Of a stretch of DNA of 64,000 nt, positions 8,582-62,443 are shown in pieces. The translations under genes were made by a program, and so were the position numbers. The stretch is from Elusimicrobiota bacterium (GTDB taxonomy: Bacteria > Elusimicrobiota > Elusimicrobia > UBA1565 > UBA9628), in the NCBI GenBank assembly GCA_027319565.1, contig DAHVNA010000001.1:114716-178715 (forward strand), written 5' to 3'. The notes below the pieces were generated by a model. It was not told the origin of the DNA. It ran no database searches and was given only the letters and a program-made list of their open reading frames with translations. Every line of letters starts with the position of its first letter. The stretch's first letter is position 1.

Positions 8582-8585
8582 TTTT

Positions 8586-9175: not shown

Positions 9176-9177
9176 AC

Positions 9178-9894: not shown

Positions 9895-9904
9895 GGAGAC
9901 TATT

Positions 9905-11893: not shown

Positions 11894-11948
11894 AGGCCTT
11901 GACATATTCCGCAAACCCGTTATACTTCTAAAAGGGGTTAAAATTTAA

Positions 11949-39520: not shown

Positions 39521-42500
39521 TTGAAAGGAGGGGCTTTGGGCTTGCTTTGGTCGTTATTTTTGTGGGGGAATCAGCTTTGTTTTCCCCAGGCTGCGGCAAT
39601 CCCGCCGGAGATGACTCTCAACACCCAAGCTCAACAGCTTTATCTCTCCGCGGGAAATTTTTTTCAAACCCAAGATTACGCCCATGCCGCCGATCAATAC
39701 CAAGAATTCTTAAAACGCGATCGCGATCAACCCGATCGTCTTGAGGCCCAGATGATGCTGGCGGAAAGCCTTTACCGGCAAGGCATTGCGCAATTGTCTT
39801 TGTCTCCTAAGCGCGCGGCAAAGATTTTTAAGCAGGCGAAAAAGGCTTATAAGAAAGTGTCTCGGGACTCTCCAAGCGGGGACTATCTGGCGGAGAGCGC
39901 GCGGTTTCGAATCGGGGAAATGGCCTTTAACCTTGGCCAATATGACGAGGCCGTTTCGGATATGGAAAGTTTGGTTTCCGATTACCCTCTAGGCACGTTG
40001 AGAGGCGAAGCCCGGTTGCTTGAGGCCGAGGCCTTGATGTCTCAAAAACAGTTCTCAAAGGCGGAGAACTTGCTGGATGAGGCTTTAAAAGAACAACCCT
40101 CTTATGCCGATAATCCGAGACTCAAATTAGTGCGCGGGATCGCTCTTTTTGAAACGGGAAATCCTGCCGCTGCTCTGGCGTCTCTGAGCGGGCTTCAATC
40201 TCCGCTCGCGCTTTTATATTCCGCTCGAGCCAACATGAATCTGGAAAAGCCTTTAATCGCGGTTGAGAACCTTAAGACCCTGATCGCGGATTATCCTGAA
40301 GACCCGGAAGTTGAAATGAGCCGTTATCTGGTGGGGGAGGCTTTTTTCGAGGCCAGAGACTACACCTCGGCAGCCCAGGTCTTTAACCAGTTTCTGATGG
40401 ATTATCCGCGTAGCTCTTTGCGCGGGGCGGCGACTTATAAAATGGGCTTATGCAGTTATAACCTTAAAGATTATATGGCGGCGCGCGGAGACTTTGAGTC
40501 GGTTGAACAAATGAGTCCGCCTGGAGAATTCGCCGAGCCGAGCCTCTACATGATGGGCGAATCTTTTCTAAAGGAAGGAAACTATACCAAAGCCGGTTTT
40601 GATTATTCCGATTTATCCTCCGCTTATTCCAATCGCTTGGCCGGAACCGCTCAATTTAAGCTGGCTTGGACCCAATATAAGCGGCAGGAATATCCGGAGG
40701 CCCATGTCACGCTCAATTCGTTCATTGTCCGCTATTCATCGCATCCATTAGTTCCAGCGGCGGCGTATCTCAATGGAAATACTTTAGGAAGCGAGGGTAA
40801 ATATCGCCAGGCGGCTCACGCCTATCAACAATCCTTAGACTTGGCGGCTTCCAATCTCTATCCCTATCGGAGTTTAATTTTAAACCCGGCCTTGGCCATG
40901 CTTAGCCGCTCCTATTTGGAAGCCGGAGAATACGGCCATTTGATCTCCGGTTATCAATACGTCCTTAAGGAAAATGCCCCCACCCAGGATCCTTGGCGCG
41001 CGGCCGCTCTCCTTTATATAGCGGAGGGATATTACCGGCAGGGGCTTTATGATCAGTCTCTTTCGATTTACAAGGAAATCATCCATTCCTATCCTGCGAC
41101 TCCGGAATCCATTGTCGCAAAGGATGGAATCAGTTGGTGTCTTTTTAAACAAGGGCATTTTTCTCAATCTTATCAGAAGCGCGTTGAACTGGAGGCCTTG
41201 AAGAACGCGCCGGCGATTGCCCCGTCTAAGACCGTTGTCGTCAATGAAAATCCGGGCGCCGATTTGTTTTTAAACAACCAGTATGCCGAGGCGGTCACTC
41301 TTTTTAATCAGAAAAAATATGCCGACGCCTTGGACGCCTTTGAGCGGTTTGAAAAAGATTACGCCCAGGACCCGCGCGCGGCCGATGCCGCTTTGGAAGA
41401 GGGTTGGTGCTATTACCGCCTCAATTATTACGGTGACGCCGTTAAAACCTGGGAAAGGGTGGAAGCGAGTTATTCGTCTTCTGAAGCCGCCAAATCCGCG
41501 GCCTGGGCCACGGCCGACACTTATTTTAGAGCCGCTCAATACGACAAAGCCGTGGCGGCCTATCAACATATACTCCAAACCTATCCGGATGACGCCGCTT
41601 CTTCATATGCCCGGCTTCGCATCGCCCAAAGTTATTACAACGCGAAAAATATTCCCCAGGCCATCTCTGCGTTTGAGGATGTTTTGAATAATTCTCCTGG
41701 AGACAAGGAGGGTCAACAGGTTCTGGATTATTTAACGCAGATGCTTTATCAGCCCGAATCTAAAGACGCGGCCTTAAAGGCTCTTCAATCTTTGGCGAGC
41801 TCCCAATCTTCGAACTCTTTTGGAGCGAGAGCGGAACTGGGTTTGGGGCTTTATTTTTTCGAGACGGGAGATTATACCAGCGCGGTTCAAAACTTAGAGG
41901 AAGCGATCCCCAACCTTTCGCGGGACAAAGATATTCGCGACGCCCAGTATGATTTGGCCCAATCTTATTACGCCTTAAAGCGCTATGAGGATGCGGAAAG
42001 GGCTTATCAGCGCTTTACGGAAAACTATCCTGACGATTCGCGTCTGAGAGCGGCTTTGTTTCGCATGGGAACCTCGGCGTTCAATTTAAAGGATTTCGAA
42101 AGAGCGGCCGCGGCTTTCCATCAGTTGGCGGCGCAGTATCCAAAGTCTCATTACGCCGCCTTGGCCCTCTACAACTCTTCCTTGGCCTATCGAAAATTGG
42201 GCGATTGGGAATCGGCGGCCTTGGCCTTGAAAAATTATATCGCTCTTTATCCGCAGCAGGCTCAAAAATCAAGCGCGCCATCGGAACTGGCTTCCGTTTA
42301 CGAGGAACAACGAGACTATGGAAAAGCGATTAAGCAGCTGGAGTCCGAAAAGAGCTCTCTTAAAAGCGATGACCCTGTTTTCCTAGAGACCAGTCTTGAG
42401 ATCGCCAAGGATTACGCGGCGATGGGAGATGATGCCGATTCTCTGAAAGAATACCAAGCCATCGAGGCTAGCCCGCTTAAGAGTAATCCCTACCGTTTAA

Positions 42501-42727
42501 ACGCCTTGGCCGATTTGGGCCGCTTCTATGAAGATAAAAAAGAGTGGAGCCTTGCGGCAAAGACCTATGAGGAGTTGTCTTTGAGCACCAACGATCCCAG
42601 TTGGCGCGATCCCGCCAAAGCTCGCGCAGAAGCGGATCGCGAAAAAGTTTCCAAGACCGTTTCGGCTGATTCCAATCAGAATCAAGTTCAGAATTCTTCC
42701 GCGCCGGCGGGAGGAGGGGCGCAATGA
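39521..42727 (+). CDS. Very large TPR-repeat protein (CpoB/YbgF-like repeats), probably periplasmic.
   Basis: N-terminal hydrophobic signal-like segment. TPR-like repeats across 1068 aa (e.g. QAQMMLAESLYRQGI, AAYLNGNTLGSEGKYRQAAHAYQQSL, AQYDLAQSYYALKRYEDAERAYQRF). The start may lie at in-frame TTGs at 39536 or 39542, since the SD falls inside the annotated start. Confidence 0.75.
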   Translation: MKGGALGLLWSLFLWGNQLCFPQAAAIPPEMTLNTQAQQLYLSAGNFFQTQDYAHAADQYQEFLKRDRDQPDRLEAQMMLAESLYRQGIAQLSLSPKRAAKIFKQAKKAYKKVSRDSPSGDYLAESARFRIGEMAFNLGQYDEAVSDMESLVSDYPLGTLRGEARLLEAEALMSQKQFSKAENLLDEALKEQPSYADNPRLKLVRGIALFETGNPAAALASLSGLQSPLALLYSARANMNLEKPLIAVENLKTLIADYPEDPEVEMSRYLVGEAFFEARDYTSAAQVFNQFLMDYPRSSLRGAATYKMGLCSYNLKDYMAARGDFESVEQMSPPGEFAEPSLYMMGESFLKEGNYTKAGFDYSDLSSAYSNRLAGTAQFKLAWTQYKRQEYPEAHVTLNSFIVRYSSHPLVPAAAYLNGNTLGSEGKYRQAAHAYQQSLDLAASNLYPYRSLILNPALAMLSRSYLEAGEYGHLISGYQYVLKENAPTQDPWRAAALLYIAEGYYRQGLYDQSLSIYKEIIHSYPATPESIVAKDGISWCLFKQGHFSQSYQKRVELEALKNAPAIAPSKTVVVNENPGADLFLNNQYAEAVTLFNQKKYADALDAFERFEKDYAQDPRAADAALEEGWCYYRLNYYGDAVKTWERVEASYSSSEAAKSAAWATADTYFRAAQYDKAVAAYQHILQTYPDDAASSYARLRIAQSYYNAKNIPQAISAFEDVLNNSPGDKEGQQVLDYLTQMLYQPESKDAALKALQSLASSQSSNSFGARAELGLGLYFFETGDYTSAVQNLEEAIPNLSRDKDIRDAQYDLAQSYYALKRYEDAERAYQRFTENYPDDSRLRAALFRMGTSAFNLKDFERAAAAFHQLAAQYPKSHYAALALYNSSLAYRKLGDWESAALALKNYIALYPQQAQKSSAPSELASVYEEQRDYGKAIKQLESEKSSLKSDDPVFLETSLEIAKDYAAMGDDADSLKEYQAIEASPLKSNPYRLNALADLGRFYEDKKEWSLAAKTYEELSLSTNDPSWRDPAKARAEADREKVSKTVSADSNQNQVQNSSAPAGGGAQ

Positions 42728-42781
42728 TGAATGGACGGAATTTTATTTCTAGTGGAGTGGTTCATAAATCCATTTACAATC

Positions 42782-42855
42782 CGTCACCCCGGCAGGTCTT
42801 AAGCCGGGGTCCAGCCTCTTTGTGGGTTTGGATTCCGGCAACAGCCGGAATGACG
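42782..42855 (-). repeat. REP/MITE-like double-hairpin element, copy 2, in inverse orientation to copy 1. It lies in the 5' leader / N-terminal extension of the FlgD-Ig gene.
   Basis: The reverse complement reads CGTCATTCCGGC-TGTT-GCCGGAATCCAAACCCACAAAGAGGCTGG-ACCCCGGC-TTAAGACCT-GCCGGGGTGACG, the same architecture as copy 1 at 17452-17526. Confidence 0.7.
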
Positions 42856-45800
42856 AAAATGCAAAATGTAAGCAAGAATTGGAGACTCTACGCTAGGGGA
42901 AAATGGCTTGCCATTTTCTTCTTCTTGATCGCCTTTTTATGGCCAAGGAATCTTCATGCCAAATCATCTCCATTAGAGCCCCCCAGCCTGATTTTTTCGC
43001 CCGCTGGAAACGGATCTCGAAAAACTCTTTCTTTTGTCGTTAATCTGCCGGAGACCGCCGAAGTCTCTAGCTGGCGTTTTGAGATTCGAGAGAAGGGAAA
43101 CAAAGACCTTCCCGGCGCCCTTGTCAAAGCATTTTCCGGTGATGGACGCCCGCCTCAAAAGATTGTCTGGGATGGAAAAGACACCCAAAACCGGGTGGTC
43201 GAGGATGGAACTTATTATTATTCGTTGAGCCTTCAGACCCCGGCTGGAAATCAAGCCGCGATTCGCCTTTCTCCGGTGATTGTCGACCGCGTTCCTCCCA
43301 CTATTTCGGCCAAGGTCCATCCCAGAATTTTTTCTCCCAACGGTCTTAAGCCGGAGACCGTTTTTACTTTGAAAGCTTCCGATCAGTACGGAATTTATGA
43401 ATGGCTGCTTGAAATTAAAGGTTCCGATGGGGTGCCGGTCAAGTCTTGGATGGGAAAAGGGCGTCCGCCCGCGGCCGTGCGTTGGGATGGGAGAGGAGAT
43501 TTTAATGAAGACGTGCCGAACGGGACCTATACCTTTCAGCTCACGGTTGAGAACCTGGCTTCAAATCGCGCGGTCACGCCGCCCCAGACGGTGACGGTTA
43601 AAAGGCAAGGCGTGGTTTCAACCGTGGGAGTGACTCCGGACGTTTTTTCCCCGCATAAAGAGAAACCGATCGCGAGTTTTGATATTACCGGCGGCGATCC
43701 TTCCTCGGTTGAGCGTTGGGAGCTCAAAATTATCAACCAAGCCGGCAGGCCCGTCTTTTCTTTCAAAGGCAATGGGGCTCCACCCGCGCGTCTTGACTGG
43801 AATGGGGATATTTCTAAGGATAAGACCGCGCCTGACGGGGCTTATCAAGTTATCTTATATGAGACCGACAATGCCGGGAACACCGCCGCTTCCGCTCCGG
43901 AACCCCTCTATGTCGATACAAAGCCGCCTCTTTTGGAAGCGCGCCTGGAGCCGGATTTGTTGAGTCCGGGAAAACAGCGCGAAAATTCCCAAGGGATTTT
44001 TAAATTGCGCGCTGAGAGCCGATATCCGTTTAAATGGGCCCTTAAAATTTATACCGATGTCGGAGAACCGGTCAGAACTTGGAGCGGGAAAATGGGGTCA
44101 AGAGTCCCGAACCAAATTTTGTGGCACGGCAATAACGACTCCGGGCAGATTGTCACCGACGGGACCTATTCTTATTCCCTTTGGGCTTCTGATATCGCCG
44201 GAAATGAAGGGGAAACTCCGCGGCAAAAATTCGTGGTGAACACGACTCCCCCGGCTCTGTCTGTTTCAGCGGATCATGCCCTTTTTTCTCCCAATGGCGA
44301 CCCCACTCTGAGCCACGTCGTTTTTAGTTTGAGCGCCCAGGATGCCAGTCCCTTCGCGAGCTGGGCTCTTTTGATTAACGATTCAAGCGGCAATCTTGTT
44401 CGCGAATTCACCGGATCTCCGCTCAATATTCCGGAGAGCGTCTCATGGAACGGGAAAAGCAAAGACCGCGAACCGCTTCCGGACGGGACCTACTCCTATG
44501 CGCTCGAGGCGAAAGATATCGCGGGAAATTCCGCCAAGACTAGTCCCCAAAATATCGTTATTGGAGCGACCAAGCCCATTCCTCGGGTGTCTTCTTCTCT
44601 GGACGCTATCTCGCCCAATGCCGATGGATTTAAAGACACGACCGATTTCCATTTGAGCGTCAAATCCTTCAATCCGGTTGAAAAATGGTTTCTTAGGATT
44701 TTTGATGAAGACAAGGTCGCGCGCCGGACCTTTGAAGGGCAGGGAGACGTTCCCGGAACCATCCAATGGGGCGGCGAGGGAGACGATCAAAAAACGCTTC
44801 CGGACGGGAGATATTCTTATCAGCTGGAAGTGGTCGACGCCGCCGGAAACACCAGCAAGACCCGCCTTAAATCTATTTTGATCAACACAACGCCGCCCAC
44901 AATTAAAATTACCGCCGACCCTGCTCTTTTTTCGCCGAAACCGACGGCGCCTCATTTTAGCTCTTCGACCATGTTTGTCCTAGGCTATCAAGATGTCAGC
45001 CCGGTCATGAGATGGAAAGTGATCATTCAGGACCCGATGAAAAATAATGTTCGCGTTTTTTCCGGAAATTCTTCTTTTCCGCGGTCAATTTCCTGGTATG
45101 GGCGTTCCAGCTCCAGAAAGATTTTACCGGACGGGCCCTACACCTATACTCTTTTCGCGGAAGATGATGTTGGCAATAAGTCGACCACCTCCGAGCAGAT
45201 TTTGCGCTTGGACGGCTCTTCTCCCCAGGTGAGTTTGAGAGCGGACCCCACGCTTTTTTCGCCCGGGACGGGCTCTCAGAAAAACGAGACGACTCTATTG
45301 TTGGGATATAAGGCCAAGGCCGACATCTCTAAATGGAAATTGTCCATTGACTTAAAAAAGGGAGAAGTCGCGCGCGTTTTCTCGGGCCTTGGGCGTCCGC
45401 CGCAAAATATCCCATGGGACGGGAAAAACGCCTACGGGCGCATTCTTCCCGATGGGACTTACGACGCGTTTTTGAAAGTCATTGACGAAGTCGGCAACGA
45501 GGGGCTTAGCCCCGCCGCTAAAATCACGATCGACACCTCAAAACCAGTCGCCACTGTCGTCGCCCAAACCGAGCAGTTGGAAGACCTAAGCGTTCCTCTG
45601 ACCGTTACGAAAGACGCGGACAAGGATATCGTTATTTCCTTGGCCAGCGAGGTCCTTTTTGATAGCGGCAAGTCGACTTTAAAAGATGCGGCCGACAATA
45701 CCCTTTTAAGAGCCGCCTATCTTATTAAGCGTTATCCCCATCGCGCCGTTTTAATTAATGGGTATACCGACAATGTGCCAATCCATGACGCGTCGTTTAA

Positions 45801-51185: not shown

Positions 51186-52436
51186 TTAGATGAGAAGTCC
51201 TGCGATGGCCGCGCTTAAAAAGCAGGTTAAAGAACCCGCGATCCAAGCATAAACTCCAAGGCGCGCCAGGTCTTTTCTGCGCTTGGGAGCCAAGACTCCG
51301 ATTCCTCCGATTTGAATTCCGATAGAGAGAAGATTTGAAAAACCGCACAGAGCGTAGGCGGCGATGATTTGAGAGCGCATATCCAAGGCTTGGCGAACAG
51401 ACAAGATTTTGGACATATCGGTGTAGGCTACAAATTCATTGAGAATCGTCTTTTCCCCCATTAAAAACCCCACGGTTTTACAATCTTTCCAGGGAACTCC
51501 CAATATCCACGCAATCGGAGACAAGGCTCGGCCCAAGATGAATTCAAGCCCGATGTCGGGGCGCCCGAAATAGCCGAAGATAATGTGAAGCCCGGCATTA
51601 ATCATCGCCAGCATCGCCATGAAGGCAATTAGCATGGCCGCAACGTTGAGCGCGAGTTTGAGCCCGGTCTCGGCTCCGCTTGCCGCCGCTTCCAAGACAT
51701 TGGAGTCGGTGTTAGAGTTGAGTTTTGGAATAAAACCGCTGGTTTCCGGGGTTTGGGTCTCAGGAATGATCAGTTTTGAGATGACCAATGAGCCAATGGC
51801 GGATAAGACGCTTGCCGCTAAAAGATGGCCGGCGATATCGGGAATGTAGGCTTTTAAAAGCCCGACATAGGCGATCATGACTCCGCCTGAAATCGTCGCC
51901 ATTCCAGCCACCATCACGCAGAATAACTCGGATTCCGTCATGTTTTCTAGATAGGGTTTGACTAAAAGCGGGGCCTCTGTTTGTCCCATAAAGACGTTGG
52001 CGGCGGCGTTGAGGGTTTCCGCGCCCGAGGTTTTTAAAGCGCGTTTCATGAGATGGGCCATGAGCGAAATTACCCATTGCATAATTCCCAGATAATAAAA
52101 AACGGACATCAGCGAAGAAAGAAAAATAACGCTGGGCAAGACTTGGAAGGCGAAGAAAAATCCGATAGAACCGGATTGCCCCGGCGGAATCGACAGCGCG
52201 TTAAAGACAAATTTTCCGCCTTCTTCTTGAAAGGCCAAGAGGCTGGTGACCAAATCGTTGACCTTGGCAAAAACCCAGTGTCCGCTTGCGGTCTTTAAAA
52301 TGAGGAGTGCGAAAATAAATTGAAGGAAAACCCCCCAGCCGACCACGGCCCAATTAATTTTTTTCCCGCGGCCGCCAAGCAGGCGCGCAAACAACAGCAT
52401 TGCGATAATGCCAAAGAAGCTCATCAGCCTAGGCAT
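51186..52436 (-). CDS. nupC: Concentrative nucleoside transporter (NupC/CNT family).
   Basis: Nucleos_tra2 motifs: NVFMGQTEAPLLVKPYL, GFIPKLNSNTDSNVLEAAASGAETGLKLALNVAAMLIAFMAMLA and GVPWKDCKTVGFLMGEKTILNEFVAY. Confidence 0.8.
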   Translation of the reverse strand: MPRLMSFFGIIAMLLFARLLGGRGKKINWAVVGWGVFLQFIFALLILKTASGHWVFAKVNDLVTSLLAFQEEGGKFVFNALSIPPGQSGSIGFFFAFQVLPSVIFLSSLMSVFYYLGIMQWVISLMAHLMKRALKTSGAETLNAAANVFMGQTEAPLLVKPYLENMTESELFCVMVAGMATISGGVMIAYVGLLKAYIPDIAGHLLAASVLSAIGSLVISKLIIPETQTPETSGFIPKLNSNTDSNVLEAAASGAETGLKLALNVAAMLIAFMAMLAMINAGLHIIFGYFGRPDIGLEFILGRALSPIAWILGVPWKDCKTVGFLMGEKTILNEFVAYTDMSKILSVRQALDMRSQIIAAYALCGFSNLLSIGIQIGGIGVLAPKRRKDLARLGVYAWIAGSLTCFLSAAIAGLLI

Positions 52437-54024
52437 GGCTAAAGACCTCGGCTTTAGAATGTTTTGAAAAAGAGAGAGCGAAGAATGTTATGGATAAGAG
52501 CGCATATGCCGCGGAAAACTGATAGGGAATTTGATTGGCCGGATAGGCCAAGGTCCAAGGCCCATACATCGAGCCGTCCGGGGATGCGGAATGAACAATT
52601 CCAAAAAATGAAAAGACAGACAATAGCATGAGATAAAATGAAGAACGCTTGAGCTTCCCATCAATTAATTCCGCCATGAATGCGCCCCAGAGCATCGCGG
52701 TCAAGATAAATCCGTTTCCAAGGGCCGTAATGACAAGAACTTCGGGCAAGCCTTTTCCGACGGCATTGAGAAGAGTCTGAAATTTTTCCGGGCTAATCCA
52801 ATCGGGGTTTGAAATTTTAATTTGTAAAAGCCGCGCTACGGTGGGAAAATAAGAGAAGGCGACGGCCGGGGCATGCCGGGCGGGGCAGGAGAGAAACGCC
52901 TGGCAGATGATGTCTAAGGCCACGAAAATGAGAATAGGAGCGATGACGGCCCGAGGAATTAATTCGACGATAGCCCCTAAATATCCAAAGATTCCTCCGA
53001 GTCCTATGAAGAGCCCGGTGAGGAGTGTGTATCCATAGCGGCTTCCCATATGCTTATAGGCGGGTTGACCGATATAAGGCGTTGACTGCGCGACCCCGCC
53101 GAAAATTCCGGCAATCAAGGTCGCGACGGCCTCGGTTAGAAGAATATCCCGGGTGTTAAAATTGTCGCCCGCGACTTTTGCGCTTTCAGTGACATTGATT
53201 CCCCCGACGACGGTCAAAATTCCAAAGGGAAGGGCGATTGGCAGATATCGGAGGGAAGGAATAAAACCATGGACAAATCCCAGTGTCGGGAGCGGAAACC
53301 CAAAATGAAAGGTGATGCTGGGGGGAGAATAATGGCCTCCCACAAGCCCATGCGGAGCCAAGAGATAATAAAGAAAAGTTCCCAGTCCTATCGCGGTTAA
53401 AACTCCGGGAAAATTCCACGGGAGTTTTCTGTGGGCGACCAAGGAATAAAGAATCAACCCCAAGGATAAAACCCCGACTAAGGGCATTCCAAAGACCTCG
53501 GCCAAAGGGACAAATCCAATTAAGGCAAGGCCGATTCCGGCTAAGGATCCCAAAAGTCCGGCCTGGGGCACCGCTTTTCTGACCCAATCGCCGAAAAACG
53601 AAAGAATGAGCTTTAAAACTCCAATGGAAATCATGGTCGCCATTCCGATTTCCCAGGCTTGAATGGCCGCCGCCTGCGGGGAAAGCCCCTGGTTTTTAAG
53701 CGCGATAAAAGACGGGCCGAGAACCGTCAGGGCGATTCCGATAGTCGAGGGAGTGTCCAAGCCCAAGGGCATGGCGGTGACGGATTCCTTTCCAGTTTTT
53801 TTAGCCAGGCGAAAGGCCATCCAGGTATAGACGAGATCGCCAAAAAGAACGCCCAAAGCCGTTCCCGGAAACATTCTTCCGTAGACGATGTTTTCCGGGA
53901 AATGAAATCCAAAAATCAGGATTCCGGCTAGGAAAGAAAGGACGGTCAGATTGTCGAAAGCAAGGCCGAAAAAACCGTTCAAATCGCCAAGCCCGATTAA
54001 ATTGCCAACGGCGTTTCTTTCCAT
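52429..54024 (-). CDS. NCS2-family nucleobase permease (AzgA-like).
   Basis: About 12 TM helices. N-terminal NLTVLSFLAGILIFGFHFPENIVYGRMFPGTALGVLFGDLVYTWMAF and MPLGLDTPSTIGIALTVLG resemble the AzgA family. Adjacent to nupC. Confidence 0.5.
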   Translation of the reverse strand: MERNAVGNLIGLGDLNGFFGLAFDNLTVLSFLAGILIFGFHFPENIVYGRMFPGTALGVLFGDLVYTWMAFRLAKKTGKESVTAMPLGLDTPSTIGIALTVLGPSFIALKNQGLSPQAAAIQAWEIGMATMISIGVLKLILSFFGDWVRKAVPQAGLLGSLAGIGLALIGFVPLAEVFGMPLVGVLSLGLILYSLVAHRKLPWNFPGVLTAIGLGTFLYYLLAPHGLVGGHYSPPSITFHFGFPLPTLGFVHGFIPSLRYLPIALPFGILTVVGGINVTESAKVAGDNFNTRDILLTEAVATLIAGIFGGVAQSTPYIGQPAYKHMGSRYGYTLLTGLFIGLGGIFGYLGAIVELIPRAVIAPILIFVALDIICQAFLSCPARHAPAVAFSYFPTVARLLQIKISNPDWISPEKFQTLLNAVGKGLPEVLVITALGNGFILTAMLWGAFMAELIDGKLKRSSFYLMLLSVFSFFGIVHSASPDGSMYGPWTLAYPANQIPYQFSAAYALLSITFFALSFSKHSKAEVFSHA

Positions 54025-54118
54025 TGGTAAATTCTACCTGATTTTGAGGGCGGTAACCGAGTTGCTGGCTTGAAAATGTGTTTCCCGTTCTCGGTCTAGG
54101 CCTTTTGTTGGCGCGAGT

Positions 54119-54136
54119 CTGGGCCTTTAGGCCCAG
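54119..54136. promoter_or_regulatory. Perfect 7-4-7 palindrome (CTGGGCC-TTTA-GGCCCAG) in a divergent intergenic region. Candidate operator.
   Basis: Read directly. Revcomp(CTGGGCC) = GGCCCAG. It lies between the start of the AzgA-like gene (minus strand, 54024) and the kinase-like gene (plus strand, 54168). A related half-site, TAGGCC, sits at about 54097. Confidence 0.4.
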
Positions 54137-54167
54137 GGAAAAAATGGGCGTTTAGCTTATACTAATA

Positions 54168-55232
54168 ATGATGAAGGAAAAACTCTTCAAATTCCGAAAA
54201 TTCCGATGGGGAATTGGGTTTCTCGCGTTATGGATGGGGTTTCCCGTTTGGGCTCTTGAGTCTTCCGCGCGCTTTGAAGAGCCGGTTCCAATTAATTTAC
54301 ATTCTTTTTCCAATGCCGTCCAACCCAATGATGTTTTGCCCGATCTGGGAAATTCTCCGAAAGAGATTTCTTTCCCAAGCGAAATTTTTCATAGAAAAGA
54401 GCGCCTTTTAAGTCCTCAGGTTCCTTTAGCTAGACCCCATGATCTAGCAGACAACGATCCTGCTCGGGGCTTTGTGCCATTTGAGAGAGTTGTCGAAAAT
54501 TCCCCAAAATCCGTATTTCAGACGAAAACCGCTTCTCGCCTCAATCAGGAGTCGTTTAAAAGTCCTGTTAGCGGCGGGGTTCTTTTTGACGGCGCTCAAG
54601 AAAAAGAGGGGCCGTGGAAATACGATTTGGAGGGAGCGTTGTGGTTTTCCGGTCAACAGGCGCAACTGATAGGTTCCGGTTCTTATGGGCGCGTTTTTGC
54701 GCATCCCGCTAATCAAGACTGGGTCGTTAAAGTGATTCACGGCAGCAGGATTTACGGGGCGACCGCGTTTTATGAACATCCGGAATTTTCCAATCTTGAG
54801 AAATTGTCTCAAGCCCATCTTTCTCCGCGCCCGATAGATACGGGTCTCATAAATGGCATTCCCTATATTATTTCAGAGCGGGTGCATGGCGCGACCTTAG
54901 GAGACATCATTGGCGAGAAAAAATTTGGCATTAGGGAGTTAAAATTATTGCGGCAGATGTTTAACTCTCTTTTAAAGAGCCGGTTTTCCATCGTCGATCT
55001 AACCCCCAGCAATGTCATGTTGGGGCATACGGCGTCTAATCCAGAACCCCAAGCCTATATTATTGACGCGGGGCTTTTAACTTCGATTAGCGTTTTTGCT
55101 AATCCTTTTATTGATATCCAAGATTTGGTGAAAGATTGCAACGATTTGCTACGCCGATCAGGGAGCGTTCGAAAAATCGAGTTTGCGCGCCGGGAGATTG
55201 GTCATAAAGCCGCGCTTTTTTTCTCGCGTTAA
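54168..55232 (+). CDS. Signal-peptide-bearing protein with a C-terminal protein-kinase-like (PKL) fold.
   Basis: Signal/TM FRWGIGFLALWMGFPVWALESS. Kinase-like elements: Gly loop LIGSGSYGRVF, beta3 Lys WVVKVIH, hinge ISERVHGATLGD, catalytic-loop-like IVDLTPSNVML and DFG-like YIIDAGL. Confidence 0.4.
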   Translation: MMKEKLFKFRKFRWGIGFLALWMGFPVWALESSARFEEPVPINLHSFSNAVQPNDVLPDLGNSPKEISFPSEIFHRKERLLSPQVPLARPHDLADNDPARGFVPFERVVENSPKSVFQTKTASRLNQESFKSPVSGGVLFDGAQEKEGPWKYDLEGALWFSGQQAQLIGSGSYGRVFAHPANQDWVVKVIHGSRIYGATAFYEHPEFSNLEKLSQAHLSPRPIDTGLINGIPYIISERVHGATLGDIIGEKKFGIRELKLLRQMFNSLLKSRFSIVDLTPSNVMLGHTASNPEPQAYIIDAGLLTSISVFANPFIDIQDLVKDCNDLLRRSGSVRKIEFARREIGHKAALFFSR

Positions 55233-55236
55233 TTTA

Positions 55237-57450
55237 ATGAAGATATCTGCTCAAATTCTGTGGAGCCTTTTTCTTTTGATTTCTGCTCCCTTTTCTTATG
55301 CCGCTTCCGGCTGGGTTGAGGCGGATCCTGCGGGAGGCTTTTCAAAATATAACCCGGCGACCGTCGACCGGATTGAGTTTGGGAATCAATTTCAGAATCA
55401 GGGAATGGATCAATGGTGCGATCGATTCCCTCTCATCGTGCCCCTCAGTCAAGACTTTGTCAACGGTTTGGGGCCGGGAAGTTTGTTGGTCGGGGGAACT
55501 TTTTCGGGAACTAGACAATTTCTCCGCTATCCCGATGGCAGTCTTGCTCTCAACGATCAATTGGAAATTAAATTTCAAAGCGGATATGCGATGACCGCCG
55601 TCAAGAGCGCGGCAGGCATTTCTCAGAGGGCTTTAGGGGTTTACGCGGGGGTTTCCGTCGATGGGCAGTCGATTGTCACCCGTCCGCTTCACACCGCTGA
55701 CTCTTGCAGCCAGGTCAAACGCCTTCTCAACGTGCTTGACTTTAAAACCGTTCTCCCGCTCAATGCCAAGAGAATTTCAAAAATGGAAGTGGGGGAATTG
55801 TGGGAAATTCCGCTGGTCTATCAGATTTCTTTTGAGCCTTTGGACGCGGCCCAGGTCCTGGAAACTCCGGGGTCTTTTACGCCTTTTTCCGCTTATTTCG
55901 CGATAGGCTTGTCTAAAACCGCGGACCCCACCGTGACTCTTTTTAGAAAATCTTCGCACGATTTGCGCCTCAAAATCCATTTCGATCAATTTAAGACCGT
56001 CAGCGCTTCCGGCGGAGCGGTCGTAGGGCCGATTCCAGCCACCGATATTGGAACTCCGGGAATTGAGTCGCTTTTATCGAACATGCTTCCGAATCTTATC
56101 TCGAATCCCGCGCTTAAACTTTTAACGCGAGAGGTGGATGATTATCTCGCGGCCCAGATTGCGGTTTTAGTCTCTCAAGAGCGCGGCGGGCAAATTTTAC
56201 TCGAATACCGCTTGGATCCCGCCAATCAAAAACAGATGGAAGAACTCGCCAAGCTTTTGAAAGGCGATTTGAGCGTTCTTTCAGCGATGAAAAATCTGTT
56301 GGTCGACTGGAGGGGACGAGAAAACAAAGATATCGAAAAAACCCTCAACGCTTTAAGGCAAAGGCATTTGGAACATTTGCGCGTTTCCGAATCCTTGTCC
56401 GGTTTTGATCATTATCGACAGAGTCTTAAAACGCTCAATTTTTCGGTTCCGTTTCTTTTTAATTACAGCGGCTCGGTCGCGCGGAACACCGATCATTATG
56501 TGATCGCAGCGCCCCGAGGTCTTGAGTTCTATTCCTATAAGTCTCAAAAACAATCGAATTGGGGATTTTTAAAGCCCCCGATTGTGGGCTCTTCGTTGAG
56601 GCATAATCAGAGTCAAAGCGTGCAATCCCTTGTTTTTCTCAATGCGCGCCACGCTTCTAAAAATAAGGATGAGCAATTAATAGTTTATAACCGGGAAACC
56701 GGCATTTTGCGCTTGGGAGATATCCAGCAGGAGTTGTCTCGAATTGATTCTTTGATTGCCTCTATCGGGTCTCTTCAAAATTTTCCGCCTGAGGCGGAAA
56801 TTCCCAAAAAACTCAAGGATCTTGTTTCCGGTTCCGAACATAAAGGCTATGCGGAGTTAAGCGTGATTTTGACTCCAAAAGCGATTCATCAAATTATTTC
56901 TTCTTCCTCGGAATCTGTTCTCCGTGCCTTTGAGCTTTCGCTTTCCGGCGGCAACCGCGCGGTCTTTGACTATGCCCTCAAATATTCAAGATTATCGGCC
57001 GATGGCAGCCTGCATTTTAAGCGTTCTTTTGTCCGACACTTGGACGAACTGAATTTGCCGGATCCAACCCGAAAAAGGCCGGAAATGGTTTTATCCAAGG
57101 CCGGGGTTTTATTTCACGAAGTCGAGCTTCTAATTTCTGATTTAAAGAGAGCGAAAAACATTCCTTCTCCGGAACAGCAATCAAAAGAGATTCTTAAGAT
57201 ATTGGACGGCAGTTCCCATTGGTTTGAGTCTTACTCTGGATATGGCCGGGTGGTTGAAGTTCTGTTGCGTCTTGCGCCGCGAGACGGGGTGGCCGCCGAT
57301 TTGTTTTTCCATGTAGACAAAAAGAAAACCGATTCCTCAAACCCGAGCAAGCGCTATTTATTTAGCCCAGATATTCTCAGCCAGGCTTCTCTGCGCGCGA
57401 TTAGCGCCGTTGAGCGTTCCTTTATGCCGCCGACTTCGCTCAACGATTGA
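55237..57450 (+). CDS. Large secreted hypothetical protein (738 aa).
   Basis: Signal peptide MKISAQILWSLFLLISAPFSYA|AS at an in-frame ATG with good context. The ORF-track start at 55183 overlaps the upstream gene. No recognisable domain. Confidence 0.4.
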   Translation: MKISAQILWSLFLLISAPFSYAASGWVEADPAGGFSKYNPATVDRIEFGNQFQNQGMDQWCDRFPLIVPLSQDFVNGLGPGSLLVGGTFSGTRQFLRYPDGSLALNDQLEIKFQSGYAMTAVKSAAGISQRALGVYAGVSVDGQSIVTRPLHTADSCSQVKRLLNVLDFKTVLPLNAKRISKMEVGELWEIPLVYQISFEPLDAAQVLETPGSFTPFSAYFAIGLSKTADPTVTLFRKSSHDLRLKIHFDQFKTVSASGGAVVGPIPATDIGTPGIESLLSNMLPNLISNPALKLLTREVDDYLAAQIAVLVSQERGGQILLEYRLDPANQKQMEELAKLLKGDLSVLSAMKNLLVDWRGRENKDIEKTLNALRQRHLEHLRVSESLSGFDHYRQSLKTLNFSVPFLFNYSGSVARNTDHYVIAAPRGLEFYSYKSQKQSNWGFLKPPIVGSSLRHNQSQSVQSLVFLNARHASKNKDEQLIVYNRETGILRLGDIQQELSRIDSLIASIGSLQNFPPEAEIPKKLKDLVSGSEHKGYAELSVILTPKAIHQIISSSSESVLRAFELSLSGGNRAVFDYALKYSRLSADGSLHFKRSFVRHLDELNLPDPTRKRPEMVLSKAGVLFHEVELLISDLKRAKNIPSPEQQSKEILKILDGSSHWFESYSGYGRVVEVLLRLAPRDGVAADLFFHVDKKKTDSSNPSKRYLFSPDILSQASLRAISAVERSFMPPTSLND

Positions 57451-58185
57451 TTAGAACCCGACGCCAATGTTAAGCTCGTAGCCGGAAATGCCATGGAATA
57501 TCATGTAGGCTCCTCTGAGATCCACAAAGGGGAAAGGGGTGATGTCGATGCCGGCCGCCAAACGCGAACCCGTGGCTGTTGCCGCGAGCCCATCAAGGCC
57601 AGCGATTTGGGCCGTGTTGATTGTCGCTCTAGTGTCGTCAAAGCCCGCGCCGATAAAGGGCTGAACGATCGGCAGTCTCCAGATCGCGCTGAGGTCTCCT
57701 GATAAATGAGTCATCGAAAAGGCGCTGTCGTTGATCATGTCTCCCATCGCGGAAACCTCGACCGTCGGTAAAAAGAAAAGGAGGCGGGATGGAGTGAAGA
57801 GTCCATAGCGAAGGCCTCCACCTAAAACCGTCGCGCCATCGTAGCTAAATCCATGAGCTACGACGTCTAAATGAAAGGGAAGCCCTAATGTTCCCTGAAC
57901 CATTGGCAAGCCGAACGCCCCGGCGCCGCTGTTTTTTAGGACGATGTCATTTGAATTGGGGGCGGTTTGCGCTACTCCAACAAGTCCCAGGGAAAAACCG
58001 GGGAAACCATCCGGCGCTGTCGGGTCAAATTCCGCGCCTCCAAGAACTCCTCCGATATCGAGCGCAAAAGGCTTGAGCGCCTGGGAATTGATGAGTGACG
58101 AAAATTGATTAAAGGGTCCCGCCCAGGACCATAGCGGCAAAGATAACGGCATTAACGCCAACAAAAACAGAAATATTTTTTTCAT
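57451..58185 (-). CDS. Probable outer-membrane beta-barrel protein.
   Basis: Signal peptide MKKIFLFLLALMPLSLPLWSWA. Alternating hydrophobic beta-strand pattern. Gly-rich. C-terminal ...LNIGVGF ends in an aromatic residue. Confidence 0.4.
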   Translation of the reverse strand: MKKIFLFLLALMPLSLPLWSWAGPFNQFSSLINSQALKPFALDIGGVLGGAEFDPTAPDGFPGFSLGLVGVAQTAPNSNDIVLKNSGAGAFGLPMVQGTLGLPFHLDVVAHGFSYDGATVLGGGLRYGLFTPSRLLFFLPTVEVSAMGDMINDSAFSMTHLSGDLSAIWRLPIVQPFIGAGFDDTRATINTAQIAGLDGLAATATGSRLAAGIDITPFPFVDLRGAYMIFHGISGYELNIGVGF

Positions 58186-58218
58186 GAAGAAAGGATATCA
58201 AAATTTTAGGAGAAATCT

Positions 58219-59421
58219 TTAATGAGATTTGAAAATGTCGGCTAAGGTCGTTAGTATGACGATATTTTTTGCCCCGGAATAGGACAGGCCGTTGATGAGG
58301 CGCATGGCATGTCTCCAGGATTTTTTGCAAGTATTGAGCTCGTTTGAATATTTGAGAATTTCATTGCGGATTTCTTGCCGCATCGTCTTTGACCAATAAC
58401 GCTTGGCCCTAGAATAGTTATCCTTGGCCTTTTGATATTTTTCCATGGACAATAAAAATTGCTTATGGCCGGAGTCGAGCAAATCCAGAACTTTTTCTTT
58501 GAGCGTTGGGGTGGGCAAGATTTCCAGTTTTTGCTTAGCTTTTTCCATTTCCACTTCCAGACGAGCTTTGAGAATCAGCGGTTCAGGAACGCTTCTTAGT
58601 TTTTTGGATAGACCGATAGCCTGGGTCGTCCACAGCCACCATTTGGTGATATCGAACTGATGCCAGTAAATTCCATTTCTCCAATCCGCCGGAAATTTGT
58701 GATGAAAATTGTGATAACCCTCGCCGAATGTCAAAGGGGCTAAAAGCCAGTTGTCGCGAGCCGAGTTACTCATTGAATAGGGCTTTCCGCCCCAAACATG
58801 GGCGGCGGAATTAATCAGGAAGGTCATATGATGAACCACGACCATTCTAAAAAGGCCGCCCCATAAAAACCCGCCGAGAGGGTGTCCCAAGATTAGGCCC
58901 AGCATTGTCGGCAGTCCAAAAGAGACCGCGACGACTAAAAAAGGGTACCAGCGGTCTTGCCAGAGAACAAGAGGATCTTTCGTTAAGTCCGGGGCGTTTT
59001 TCTTTCTCTGTTCCGCGAAGGGATCGGTGTAAAAAATCCACCCCATATGGGCGTAGAAAAAACCTTTTCCGATATTGTAGGGATCTTTTTCGCTGTCGAC
59101 ATACCGGTGGTGATCGCGGTGATCCGAGGCCCAGCTAAGAACTGAATTTTGGGCCGCCGCCGCGCCAAAAATGAGATAGAAAAGCTGGAGGGGTTTGCCG
59201 CATTCATAGCTTCGATGGGAATAGTAGCGGTGGTATCCGGCGGTGATAGAAAGACCGGTGGCCAAATACATAAGCGCGAACACGAAGAGATTGGCCCATG
59301 GAAATCCGTAATGGATTAAATACCATATCGCTCCCAAGAGAGCGGCGGTTGGAGTGGATGTCAGCCAAAAGAGATTGAGGTAGTTGATTTCTCTTTTTGG
59401 CTGTTGTGGTTGGGTCTCCAC
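58219..59421 (-). CDS. Acyl-CoA/acyl-lipid fatty-acid desaturase (Delta9-like) with a C-terminal extension of about 110 aa.
   Basis: Three His boxes: HRYYSHRSY, HRDHHRYVD and HNFHHKFP. Four TM helices. Coiled-coil-like tail from residue 290. Confidence 0.8.
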   Translation of the reverse strand: METQPQQPKREINYLNLFWLTSTPTAALLGAIWYLIHYGFPWANLFVFALMYLATGLSITAGYHRYYSHRSYECGKPLQLFYLIFGAAAAQNSVLSWASDHRDHHRYVDSEKDPYNIGKGFFYAHMGWIFYTDPFAEQRKKNAPDLTKDPLVLWQDRWYPFLVVAVSFGLPTMLGLILGHPLGGFLWGGLFRMVVVHHMTFLINSAAHVWGGKPYSMSNSARDNWLLAPLTFGEGYHNFHHKFPADWRNGIYWHQFDITKWWLWTTQAIGLSKKLRSVPEPLILKARLEVEMEKAKQKLEILPTPTLKEKVLDLLDSGHKQFLLSMEKYQKAKDNYSRAKRYWSKTMRQEIRNEILKYSNELNTCKKSWRHAMRLINGLSYSGAKNIVILTTLADIFKSH

Positions 59422-59428
59422 AAAGGGC

Positions 59429-60742
59429 CTAGTAGCGGTAATTCTCGGTCTTGTAAGGTCCTTTGGGGTTAATTCCTAGATATTCCGCCTGTTTTTGATT
59501 GAGTTGCGTCAGATGAGCTCCGAGCTTATCTAAATGGATTCGCGCCACTCTCTCATCGAGCAGTTTGGGCAGGGTATAGACCTTGTTTTCGTATTTCTTA
59601 TTCTCGCGATTGGACCATAATTCGATCTGGGCGAGAACTTGGTTGGAAAACGAGATGCTCATCACAAAGGAGGGGTGCCCCGAGGCGCATCCAAGGTTCA
59701 CTAAGCGTCCTTCGGCCAGGACGATCAAAACTTTTCCATCCGGCCAGGTGAATTGATCGACCTGCGGCTTGACCGTCGTTCTTTTGAGTTTTTTGTCGTT
59801 CATTAAAGAAGCGACATCAATTTCAAGGTCGAAGTGCCCGATATTGCAGACGATCGCGTGGGATTTCATCGCGTCCATATGCTTTTTAGTGATGACATCG
59901 CAGCAACCGGTGGCGGTCACGAAAATATCTCCGATGGGAGCGGCTTCATCCATCGTGATGACGGAAAAGCCTTCCATGGAGGCTTGGAGAGCGGTAATAG
60001 GATCGATTTCGGTCACTAGAACTCGGGCCCCCATTCCTTTAAACGATTGCGCGCAGCCTTTGCCGACATCTCCATATCCGCAGACGACCGCGATTTTCCC
60101 CGCGATCATGACATCGGTGGCGCGTTTAATGCCGTCCAAAAGCGATTCTCTGCAGCCGTAGAGATTGTCGAATTTAGACTTGGTGCAGGAATCATTGACG
60201 TTAATGGCCGGAACCTTGAGTTTTCCTTGGGCCTCCCGTTGATACAGGCGATGAACCCCGGTCGTGGTCTCTTCCGACAAGCCGGCGATATCTTTTAAGA
60301 GATGGGGATACTTGTCGTGAATAATGTTTGTCAGGTCGCCGCCGTCATCGAGCAGAAGATTGGGGCCGAGTCCGCCTTCAAATTGGAGAGTTTGCTCAAT
60401 GCACCAATCATATTCCTCAAGAGTTTCTCCCTTCCAGGCAAAAACGGGAATTCCCGCTTGGGCAATCGCCGCGGCGGCATGATCTTGAGTCGAGAAAATA
60501 TTGCAAGAACTCCAGCGGACTTCCGCCCCCAATTGAATCAGGGTTTCAATTAAGACAGCCGTTTCAATGGTCATATGGAGGCATCCGGCGATTCGTGCCC
60601 CTTTGAGCGGTTTTTTGCCGCGATATTCCGCCCTTAAAGACATCAGCCCTGGCATTTCCGCTTCGGCTAAAGCGATTTCCTTTCTTCCCCAATCGGCAAG
60701 AGTGATATCTTTGACTTTGTAATCCATGGCGGCGGTCGGCAT
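59429..60742 (-). CDS. ahcY: Adenosylhomocysteinase (S-adenosyl-L-homocysteine hydrolase).
   Basis: [35 protein letters not shown]-terminus. NAD-binding [27 protein letters not shown]. Start placed at the ATG preceded by AAGGAG (6-nt spacing) instead of the ORF-track start 30 codons upstream. Confidence 0.9.
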
Positions 60743-60840
60743 AAATTTCTCCTTCCCAAGGCGAGACTTGGGCATTTTTTTACTAGCACTAACCACTTTA
60801 TTGTAGCAAAACTCGCTATTGATGAGATACAATAAATGTC

Positions 60841-61434
60841 ATGAATAAAATCAACAGCCGTATTGCCGAGGAATTGACGGAAAGCGGGCGGGTCATCTCT
60901 CAGTCCGCTCAAATGGCCCCTTTGCTTGAGAAAGTAGCCGAAGAATTGGTGTCTTGTTATCGTCGCGGCAACAAGATATTGACTTTTGGAAATGGCGGAT
61001 CGGCTTGCGATGCCCAAAATTTCGCCGACGAACTCGTTGGCCGTTTCGAGCGCAATCGCCCACCCCTTCCGGCATTGGCTTTGACCACTAACACTTCGGA
61101 TCTCACCTCAATATCCAACGATTTCGGTTATGAGGTTGTCTTTGCAAGGCAACTTGAGGCCCATGCCAAGCCCGGAGATATCGCGGTGGCGATATCGACC
61201 TCGGGAAACTCCAAAAATGTCCTTTTGGCCGCAGAAGCGGCAAAAAAATTAGGGCTTTTAGTCATCGGTCTTTCTGGAGAAAGCGGGGGGAAACTCAAAA
61301 ATATCGCTGACTTCTGCGTTTGCGTCCCGTCTAAGACCGTCGCGCGCATCCAAGAGGCGCATATCGCCATCATTCAAATCTGGTGCGGGATTATTGAGGA
61401 CTCTCTTTTCCCGAATGCGCCAAAAGCCCATTGA
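60841..61434 (+). CDS. gmhA: Phosphoheptose isomerase (SIS domain).
   Basis: ILTFGNGGSACDAQNFADELVGRF...DIAVAISTSGNSKNVLLAAEAAKKLGLLVIGLSGESGG. Confidence 0.8.
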   Translation: MNKINSRIAEELTESGRVISQSAQMAPLLEKVAEELVSCYRRGNKILTFGNGGSACDAQNFADELVGRFERNRPPLPALALTTNTSDLTSISNDFGYEVVFARQLEAHAKPGDIAVAISTSGNSKNVLLAAEAAKKLGLLVIGLSGESGGKLKNIADFCVCVPSKTVARIQEAHIAIIQIWCGIIEDSLFPNAPKAH

Positions 61435-61913
61435 GACCGGCGATGGGAGAGATCGTTTCTTTAAAGACAGCCGCGCTGATCCGCCAAAGCCTGAAAAAAA
61501 AACATAAGACGGTTGTTTTTACCAATGGAGTCTTCGATATTTTGCACGCCGGTCATGTTCAGGTTCTGGAGCGGGCTAAAAAAATGGGAGATGTTTTAAT
61601 TCTAGGCCTTAACCGCGATGAGTCGGTTCGCCTATTGGGAAAAGGCCCGGGCCGCCCGCTCAACCGCTTTAAAGACCGTGCCCGAGTTTTAGCGGCATTG
61701 TCGGCTGTTGACTACGTCGTTGGGTTTAAGGAAAAAACCCCTGAGAAGACGATTCGGGTTTTAAGGCCCGATATCCTGGTTAAGGGCGCCGACTATTCAA
61801 AAAACCAAATCGCGGGCGCCGCCTTTGCCGGGAAAGTCGTCCGTATCGCGCTTAAAAAAGGCTATTCAACGACAGCCCTGGTCAAAAAAATTCAGGGGTT
61901 ATCCGCCGCCTGA
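61431..61913 (+). CDS. Standalone D-beta-D-heptose-1-phosphate adenylyltransferase (RfaE/HldE domain II, cytidylyltransferase fold).
   Basis: VVFTNGVFDILHAGHVQVLERAKKMGDVLILGLNRDESV...DYVVGF. HxGH motif. About 160 aa with no fused kinase domain. Confidence 0.75.
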   Translation: MRPAMGEIVSLKTAALIRQSLKKKHKTVVFTNGVFDILHAGHVQVLERAKKMGDVLILGLNRDESVRLLGKGPGRPLNRFKDRARVLAALSAVDYVVGFKEKTPEKTIRVLRPDILVKGADYSKNQIAGAAFAGKVVRIALKKGYSTTALVKKIQGLSAA

Positions 61914-62443
61914 GTTTTCGCCGGTTTCTTTTTTTGGCGCGTTTTTGACTGGGGCGATTTAATTTTTTCCTTGCCCTTATTATTGGCGTTTAATTTTTCA
62001 AGCTCCGCGATTTTCTCTTGCGCTTTTTTAACGTCTTTGAGTAGCGGGCTTGAAGGGTGGGATTTTTCAAACGCGCTTAGATCCGCTTGGGCTTGTTTGA
62101 GCTTTCCGGAGACGACTTCCTTAACGGCGGCGGCGAATTCCTTTCGTTCTTTGAGAGTTTGTTCTCTTTGGGAAACATTAGATTTCTCCCAAGTTGGTTG
62201 ATTGAGTTTGGAGAGGTCTTGTTTGCTTCCGCGCACAGCCGCGACCGCGACTAAGTCGTTTCTATTTTCGTAGCTTTGTCCTACCGATGAGGCGGAGAGG
62301 CTTTGTTCCAGTTGAGTAAACCAATTCATCAGTAGTGTCGTGGTCGATTGCGCTTTTTGAGGCGGTGGCGCCTGTCCTTCGTCAGCCTTCGATGAACCGA
62401 CGGCGAAGACGCTCAACGCGAGCGCAAGGATTATTTTTTTCAT
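61892..62443 (-). CDS. Secreted Lys-rich coiled-coil hypothetical protein.
   Basis: Signal peptide MKKIILALALSVFAVGSSKA. Low-complexity K/E/Q-rich. Overlaps the upstream gene convergently by 22 nt. Confidence 0.35.
   Translation of the reverse strand: MKKIILALALSVFAVGSSKADEGQAPPPQKAQSTTTLLMNWFTQLEQSLSASSVGQSYENRNDLVAVAAVRGSKQDLSKLNQPTWEKSNVSQREQTLKERKEFAAAVKEVVSGKLKQAQADLSAFEKSHPSSPLLKDVKKAQEKIAELEKLNANNKGKEKIKSPQSKTRQKKKPAKTQAADNP

Follow-up and report, generated by a model that had tools for sequence, protein, structure and literature searches.

Results

Two copies of a double hairpin in the window

The window, by which we mean the whole 64-kb stretch of DNA analysed here, carries an apparent operon comprising a TPR gene, an OmpA-like (OmpA/FlgD-Ig) gene and ExbBD/TonB genes. 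A double hairpin lies close to the 5′ end of the OmpA-like gene (copy 2), and the same arrangement is found within a ChbG/YdjC-family gene (copy 1). The features of the two cores are as follows.

42782 to 42855, minus strand: core of copy 2, an inverted pair of CGTC-type REP units (74 nt), with heads outward and CCA tails inward
42832 to 42855, minus strand: REP unit 1 of copy 2 (CGTC, ATTCCGGC, TGTT, GCCGGAAT), then a CCA tail at 42829-42831
42782 to 42810, plus strand: REP unit 2 of copy 2, a variant with a 9-nt loop (CGTC, ACCCCGGC, AGGTCTTAA, GCCGGGGT), then a CCA tail at 42811-42813
17452 to 17526, plus strand: core of copy 1, the same REP pair (75 nt), with a GAAA loop in hairpin 1 and ACTCCGGC-TTACAAATT-GCCGGAGT as hairpin 2

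Read on the minus strand, 42782-42855 is CGTCATTCCGGC-TGTT-GCCGGAATCC...GACCCCGGC-TTAAGACCT-GCCGGGGTGACG or, with the spacer included, CGTCATTCCGGC-TGTT-GCCGGAATCCAAACCCACAAAGAGGCTGGACCCCGGC-TTAAGACCT-GCCGGGGTGACG. The preliminary description had taken this to be a second, inverted copy of one double hairpin, and so it proves; the two copies align from CGTC head to GACG head over ~75 nt, which take in both hairpins, the CCA tail and part of the spacer, such that the similarity is not limited to the GCCGGAAT hairpin, and it is only outside the CGTC/GACG heads that the flanks diverge. Hairpin 1 had been called ‘essentially identical’ in the two copies, which is valid for its stem only, because the loops differ (GAAA in copy 1, TGTT in copy 2). 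The compensatory double change reported for hairpin 2 is real, with ACTCCGGC/GCCGGAGT in copy 1 against ACCCCGGC/GCCGGGGT in copy 2 and a T:A pair replaced by C:G.

Between 0.00 and 0.01 occurrences of the hairpin motifs would be expected in the window by chance. A covariance model, built on the conserved core and run over the 64 kb with filters off, scored copy 1 at 95 bits and copy 2 at 83 bits, the third-best match reaching 10.8 bits (E 0.65), so that only two copies were found. Folding as RNA, as had been suggested, gave approximately -40 to -44 kcal/mol on both strands, with z-scores of -4.7 to -5.2 against shuffles; for the copy 2 core the values are -40 to -42 kcal/mol and ~-4.7. In the minimum-free-energy fold the outer arms pair together and the inner arms together, and either two hairpins or one long hairpin could form.

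Repeats of other kinds are also present in the window. Purine-rich repeats with a 10-nt period (GAAAGTAACG, ~7 copies), then their inverted complement (TTTCCGTTTC, ~4 copies), occupy 14938-15074, at the 5′ end of a pilin-like ORF (14932-15546, …GFTLIELLVV…), where they constitute a long imperfect palindrome in the region coding for the leader peptide. Short GGC/ATG-rich repeats (GGCGGCATGGGC…) at 10589-10644 and 11183-11247 lie in a secretin-like gene (ORF 9905-11893, plus strand) and encode Gly/Met-rich stretches.

A 144-nt block interrupts the OmpA-like gene

Comparison with orthologous loci places the REP pair of copy 2 in the middle of a larger block, the relevant features being these (slashes mark the breakpoints).

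42709 to 42726, plus strand: ancestral start of the OmpA-like gene, with SD GGGAGGAGGGG at 42709-42719 and ATG at 42724, overlapping the TPR stop TGA at 42725-42727
42753 to 42896, plus strand: block of 144 nt (48 codons), absent from orthologous loci and in frame with the OmpA-like ORF, defined by alignment and empty sites
Junction in the window: ...AATTTTATTTCTAG / TGGAGTGG...CTCTACGCTAG / GGGAAAATGG
Junction in L123 (empty site): ...ATTTCAAGGGGAAAAT
Junction in L121 (empty site): ...ATTTTTGTGGGAAAAT
Junction in L124 (empty site): ...ATTTCCGGGGAAAAAT

The block follows codon 9 (…NFIS) and precedes RGKWLAIFFF…, within the n-region of the signal peptide; it is free of stops and is open in one of its three sense frames, which is the frame used. 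CTAG stands on either side of it (42749-42752 and 42893-42896), possibly as a target duplication, and the arms around the hairpin pair measure 29-33 and 37-41 nt, according to the side with which the duplicated CTAG is counted. All four relatives for which the locus was compared (L121, L122, L123 and L124, each from an Elusimicrobiota-type assembly) have an empty site with clean breakpoints, and their flanks on both sides are 89-91% identical to the window (L121, L123, L124) or 80% identical (L122); the blastn alignments end at 42748/42756 and resume at 42895/42897. Among the 10 proteins of the cluster formed at ≥90% identity, the insert occurs only in the 1099-aa protein of the window (P0241), with four N-termini insert-free and five called from a downstream Met and hence uninformative. 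More distant homologues have short signal peptides at their start. Since four loci are empty and the more distant homologues are also without the block, parsimony favours an insertion in the lineage of the window over a deletion in the relatives, which are ~90% identical to it.

The insert is not an artefact of a single assembly, because the 1099-aa protein is found on four contigs. The two ends of the window (1-12761 and 51892-64000) are 99.99% and 100% identical to contig DAHZHS010000003.1 (119 kb) of GCA_027406935.1 (matches L141 and L140 respectively), and the insert-bearing proteins (P0241/P0121) are also recorded on a contig of 223,885 bp, so that the source is an Elusimicrobiota-type MAG with several assemblies.

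Two claims of the preliminary description fall on this evidence. The element had been placed between the end of the TPR gene and the signal-peptide start of the next gene, when in the relatives the TPR gene runs into the OmpA-like start (or, in L124, abuts it), and the block sits in frame after codon 9. It had also been held to generate a spurious N-terminal extension in the ORF track; the extension is no artefact, because the same start is conserved in the relatives and the block has been inserted in frame downstream of it.

In-frame insertions in ChbG/YdjC-family genes

Copy 1 likewise lies inside a coding sequence, that of a ChbG/YdjC-family gene (PF04794, deacetylase), where it is read as ...CFPRHSGESRNPDFRAELDSGLQIAGVTN...

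17422 to 17544, plus strand: in-frame insertion of ~41 codons in the ChbG/YdjC-family gene (17224-18201), translated as HEFGSDSCFPRHSGESRNPDFRAELDSGLQIAGVTNRAVWA and absent from 10 aligned homologues

All 10 of these homologues lack ~40 residues at the site of copy 1. One of the 10, from another Elusimicrobiota-type genome (P0128, at L138/L139), has an in-frame CGTC REP-pair insert of its own, 102 nt in length and at a different codon. This insert (10454-10556 of L138, with L139 identical) reads CGTCACCCCGAC-GAAA-GTCGGGGTCCAG...CTGGGTTCCGGC-TTTC-GCCGGAATGACG. It has A-runs at its sides and is enclosed by GTAACTACTCA/TGAGCAGTTGC, which form an inverted repeat outside the pair. Copy 2, copy 1 and the L138 insert represent three independent in-frame insertions in related genomes.

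We also noted a TGRGTRGTT motif, similar to that at L138, after several metagenome copies of the element (L127-L131); it resembles TGGAGTGGTTCA at 42753-42764 of the window.

Anatomy of the units and their relation to CGTC-1

CGTC-tagged REPs were described by Di Nocera, De Gregorio & Rocco (2013, BMC Genomics 14:522; PMC3733652). Family CGTC-1 is defined there by an unpaired CGTC head (variants TGTC/CCTC), an 8-bp stem with complementary A/T residues ‘almost invariably’ at the first and second positions, a 4-nt loop and a CCA tail, with atypical loops allowed in some CGTC-1/3 families (PMC3733652). The repeats occur mainly as inverted dimers with spacers of 20-100 bp, can be intragenic (including at the N-termini of ORFs) and have no known transposase; the Neisseria dRS3 repeat and Rickettsia conorii RPE-6 are equated with CGTC-1, and RPE-4 with CGTC-4 (PMC3733652).

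The window copies share with CGTC-1 the CGTC head (present in all four REP units), the 8-bp stem ATTCCGGC and 4-nt loop of unit 1, the CCA tail and the inverted-dimer layout, which both copies display. Unit 1 has, in both copies, the stem ATTCCGGC/GCCGGAAT with A/T in the first two pairs and a 4-nt loop (GAAA or TGTT). The partner unit departs from the canonical form; unit 2 of the two copies (ACTCCGGC, ACCCCGGC) has an A:T pair followed by a C:G pair, and a 9-nt loop. The tails read CCAG, CCAA and CCAG in three units and CTAG in unit 2 of copy 1. The window differs further in its low local copy density, in its Elusimicrobiota-type host and in the embedding of the pair in a larger inserted block of 144 nt.

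Distribution across genomes and covariation of the stems

The hairpin-1 pattern was found at no fewer than 120 loci (≥120) in species-representative genomes. Hosts among the matches listed include Chloroflexota, alpha-, beta- and gamma-Pseudomonadota, Desulfobacterota and other ‘deltaproteobacteria’, and Nitrospirota/Nitrospinota, together with Omnitrophota, Patescibacteria, Actinomycetota and others, with Dyella and Dehalococcoidia providing examples of REP-rich genomes; for comparison, CGTC repeats were listed for five phyla in 2013, with Elusimicrobiota-type hosts not among them (PMC3733652). Most of the matches listed take the form GTCATTCCGGC-GAAA-GCCGGAATCCAG, 15-80 nt, then CTGGAyyCCGGC-TTTC-GCCGGrrTGACG. 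A scan of metagenomes for the subfamily of the window recovered the same heterodimer, in which a 4-nt-loop unit with a CCAGAC tail is followed, after a ~14-nt spacer, by a 9-nt-loop unit, GCTGGACCCCGGC-TTACGGATT-GCCGGGGTGACG (present in L127-L136). Across the two window copies and eight metagenome copies, conservation is bounded exactly by CGTC and GACG.

Inverted partners were sought by anchoring on the unpaired tail and head alone (TGG-N8-N4-N8-GAC, within 160 nt), and 51 of the 146 hairpin-1 matches, among the matches listed, had one. Every one of these 51 partners pairs at 7-8 of its 8 positions; unrelated TGG-N20-GAC sites peak at 3/8. In 28 distinct partner hairpins from other genomes, again among the matches listed, 97.8% of cells are paired and six of the eight stem pairs show double changes, a level reached in 0 of 500 shuffles and compared with 25-47% in slid controls. 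These statistics of pairing and covariation indicate a structural constraint on the stems throughout the family, and the selection on structure that had been argued from the two window copies thus holds at family level, the compensatory change in the window being one instance of it.

Copies are few in the part of the host genome covered, where a CGTC REP family would comprise tens to thousands of dispersed units per genome. We count two dimers in ~80 kb (the 64-kb window plus 16.5 kb from GCA_027406935.1), the 16.5 kb of adjoining DNA from GCA_027406935.1 containing no further copy, and 82 kb of syntenic DNA of relatives containing none.

Arms, ends and candidate enzymes

At 144 nt, the inserted block has roughly double the length of the conserved core, its arms measuring 33 and 37 nt. 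Searched by blastn against all the DNA collected, the arms returned 10-12-mer noise only. No match to them was found among 1.84 billion proteins in a representative-protein search with the 48-aa insert peptide; that search gave 15 weak matches, all to the REP core only (query 9-43) and mostly to ORFs running through REP clusters. Because the peptide matches are confined to the REP core, the arms constitute no repeated coding module. A protein search with a chimeric query made from both insert peptides produced no candidates. A 10-mer, ATTCTTGCTT, is common to the left arms of both window copies (5 of 2000 shuffles), which is suggestive; in copy 1 it may, from its sequence, consist partly of host codons (GAT TCT, the DS of homologues). 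Whether the arms might derive, by duplication and divergence, from the ancestral 5′ coding sequence was also considered and set aside, the resemblance not being significant (359 of 2000 shuffles).

Outer inverted repeats are absent around the window copies and present at L138 and around some metagenome copies. A MITE would have terminal inverted repeats immediately bordered by a target-site duplication; here the heads form inverted repeats, and CTAG, the sole direct repeat, is short and lies 29 and 37 nt outside the heads. At L128 (270-400), a REP pair plus 16 nt stands between imperfect 14-nt direct repeats (CTTAAGCTCGGTCCA and CTTAGGCTCGGTCA), which may represent a target duplication that, unlike the CTAG of the window, is long.

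Neither a RAYT gene nor a REPtron (a cognate Y1, or HuH, transposase gene with REPs on its flanks) came to notice in the DNA collected, and the REP-cluster locus L096 is without an obvious transposase candidate. This locus, from Dehalococcoidia, carries tandem clusters of identical CGTC REP units at 3082-3313 and 4979-5066, with GTCATTCCGGCGCAAGCCGGAATC every 62 nt; a segment of 1.6 kb separates the clusters, a layout that recalls a REPtron. The ORF of this segment, of 181 aa and with an N-terminal hydrophobic stretch, was considered as a candidate and is no obvious transposase.

Discussion

Synopsis of the favoured reading

On the evidence above, the element is probably a non-autonomous, selfish palindromic repeat, namely an inverted pair of CGTC-tagged REP units of the CGTC-1 kind. 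By analogy with REP/REPIN-RAYT and IS200/IS605 systems, we suggest that a trans-acting enzyme would recognise its hairpins in the form of single-stranded DNA, and that the stems stay paired since hairpins would be needed for the copying of the element, and not for an RNA structure belonging to the operon. The insertion in the OmpA-like gene would plausibly have been tolerated because it preserves the frame and falls in a segment of the exported protein that is removed on export, leaving the mature protein unchanged.

Where translation of the OmpA-like gene begins

The features that bear on this question are the ancestral start, given above, and the following.

42850 to 42861, plus strand: two internal in-frame ATGs, at 42850 (inside the head of REP unit 1 of copy 2) and 42859, with a conventional signal peptide, MTKMQNVSKNWRLYARGKWLAIFFFLIAFLWPRNLHA, from either

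The strong SD GGGAGGAGGGG and the ATGA overlap are conserved in L121, L122 and L123, which have the same sequence as 42704-42727 of the window. L124 is a variant, with SD GGAAGGAGGGG (a one-base change) and the first ATG altered to ATA, such that the sequence becomes ATAATG and the start comes directly after the TPR stop. Public gene calls use ATG 42724 (P0241, 1099 aa, four contigs). Our best guess, which we favour slightly, is that ribosomes still initiate at this SD-ATG and read through the element, because both the frame and a length divisible by three have been kept (~1 in 9 otherwise).

The alternative is that, since its insertion, the element has become a 5′ leader, with translation of the OmpA-like gene shifted to ATG 42850, in the REP head, or to ATG 42859, and with the ORF from 42724 no longer the product. 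We take this seriously, whilst leaning against it. The N-terminus MTKMQNVSKNWRLYARGKWLAIFFFLIAFLWPRNLHA read from 42850 has a basic n-region, a hydrophobic core and an LHA motif like those of the relatives, whereas a start at 42724 would give a signal peptide with an n-region of ~60 residues, which is unusually long for Sec signal peptides. Many N-terminal REPs are, furthermore, perhaps extragenic, with translation starting downstream of them (PMC3733652). Against a shifted start, no SD word lies upstream of ATG 42850 or ATG 42859 (SD words precede 15 of the 40 ATG ORFs of the window, against a background of 14%), whereas both GGGAGGAGGGG and the coupling through ATGA persist at 42724; the predicted fold has ATG 42850 base-paired, buried in a stem; and the block is a multiple of three in length and lies in its sole open sense frame, which would be expected ~1 in 9 times if frame were irrelevant. 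Whichever start is used, the mature protein would be unchanged, because the insert lies upstream of the LHA/K cleavage motif (the slash marking the cleavage site) common to the relatives.

As a separate observation, a CGTC head with an ATT… stem reads …GGAATGACG on the opposite strand and hence contains an ATG, which at 42850-42852 is in frame with the OmpA-like gene. GTAG REPs donate TAG stop codons (PMC3733652), and the ATG of CGTC heads is the start-codon counterpart.

What may have moved

We have also entertained a more elaborate scheme, in which the CTAG-bounded 144-nt block, and not the 74-nt pair, was the unit that moved. Such a unit would be a small transposon with subterminal CGTC REP hairpins, inserted at CTAG by a single-strand DNA enzyme other than a RAYT, and the ATG on the reverse strand of its head could re-found the start of a gene. 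We regard this as unlikely; if it were true, the few, recent and datable insertions described here could lead to the transposase of CGTC REPs.

Why an operon-specific RNA element is disfavoured

A different proposal is that the double hairpin is an RNA element specific to this operon, which sets the expression of the TPR gene relative to that of the OmpA-like/ExbBD/TonB genes; the preliminary description had raised an intercistronic RNA structure or mini-terminator, and the data do not support it. The element is transcribed in sense orientation within an apparent operon and would form an RNA structure of -40 kcal/mol, 55 nt downstream of the TPR stop, and REPs have been reported as RNA elements downstream of ORFs (PMC3733652). 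Ancestrally, however, there is no intercistronic space for it to occupy, the genes overlapping by ATGA, and the hairpin structure is missing from all four of the orthologous operons examined (L121-L124), which disfavours a function selected for this operon. A terminator/promoter scan of 42300-43300 found nothing at the element, neither a terminator-like sequence nor a T-run; the stems are followed by TCCAGCC and GACGAAAA, in which there is no U-tract, so the element does not qualify as an intrinsic terminator. Rfam gave no match either, for the whole window at gathering thresholds or for 42650-42950 at E≤1. The same element also interrupts the coding sequence of an enzyme gene with no relation to this operon, and turns up in many phyla at loci that are likewise unrelated. 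We therefore consider an operon-specific role highly improbable, and the lack of a U-tract, of an Rfam match and of a counterpart in orthologous operons points instead to a mobile REP pair that is tolerated in a cleavable signal peptide. Saying this, a side effect of the element on mRNA stability or decay, or on translation, is possible.

That the two loci have only a short GC-rich hairpin in common by chance, or that the block is an assembly chimera, has nothing beyond the small copy number in the window to recommend it and is, to our minds, almost inconceivable, given similarity over the full 75 nt, a motif expectation of 0.00-0.01, scores of 83-95 bits against a background of 10.8, the exact 1099-aa product on four contigs and a twin assembly ~100% identical at the ends of the window.

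Likeness to other known systems

Returning to a CGTC-tagged REP pair as the preferred reading, three kinds of repeat invite comparison. With REPIN/RAYT systems (Bertels & Rainey 2011; Nunvar 2010; Ton-Hoang 2012; overview in PMC6006769), the element shares a doublet of inverted REPs with the capacity to form a single long hairpin, a dispersed distribution, presence/absence polymorphism and a structure kept across copies; it differs in that its head is CGTC, whereas the head recognised by RAYTs is GT[AG]G. The Rickettsia palindromic elements (Ogata et al. 2000, as cited in PMC3733652) are likewise palindromic repeats that lie in frame in protein-coding genes and are absent from orthologues, as are copy 2, copy 1 and the L138 insert. 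Their host and lifestyle are different, the likeness being drawn through the equation of RPE-6 with CGTC-1 (PMC3733652), and the encoded peptide is here a prediction from sequence. The third kind, considered below, is that of Neisseria.

Neisseria repeat units form large clusters and are targets for the integration of phage and IS elements, whereas the window holds isolated dimers inside genes. We take the dRS3 stem to be ATTCCC-N8-GGGAAT. Of the dRS3/NIME repeats, dRS3 is classed as CGTC-1 (PMC3733652). An ATTCC...GGAAT stem is common to these repeats and the element described here.

Intrinsic terminators and the REP mRNA stabilisers of the E. coli type resemble the element in being GC-rich stem-loops in a transcript, downstream of a stop codon; the element differs from them in having no U-tract, in lying inside the downstream ORF and in not being conserved in orthologous operons.

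Implications

Annotators should read the extended N-terminus of the OmpA-like protein, and likewise the odd loop of the ChbG protein, as repeat insertions, and neither as artefacts nor as new domains; nor are riboswitch, terminator or sRNA suitable labels for the hairpins. These findings do not alter how REP biology is currently understood. What they add is a set of clean presence/absence cases of CGTC-type REP pairs for an Elusimicrobiota-type genome, whose phylum was absent from the earlier list, and a host range for the CGTC repeat family that is far wider than the five phyla of 2013. CGTC REPs enter genes in frame, as in Rickettsia, and in one case here have done so in a cleavable signal peptide.
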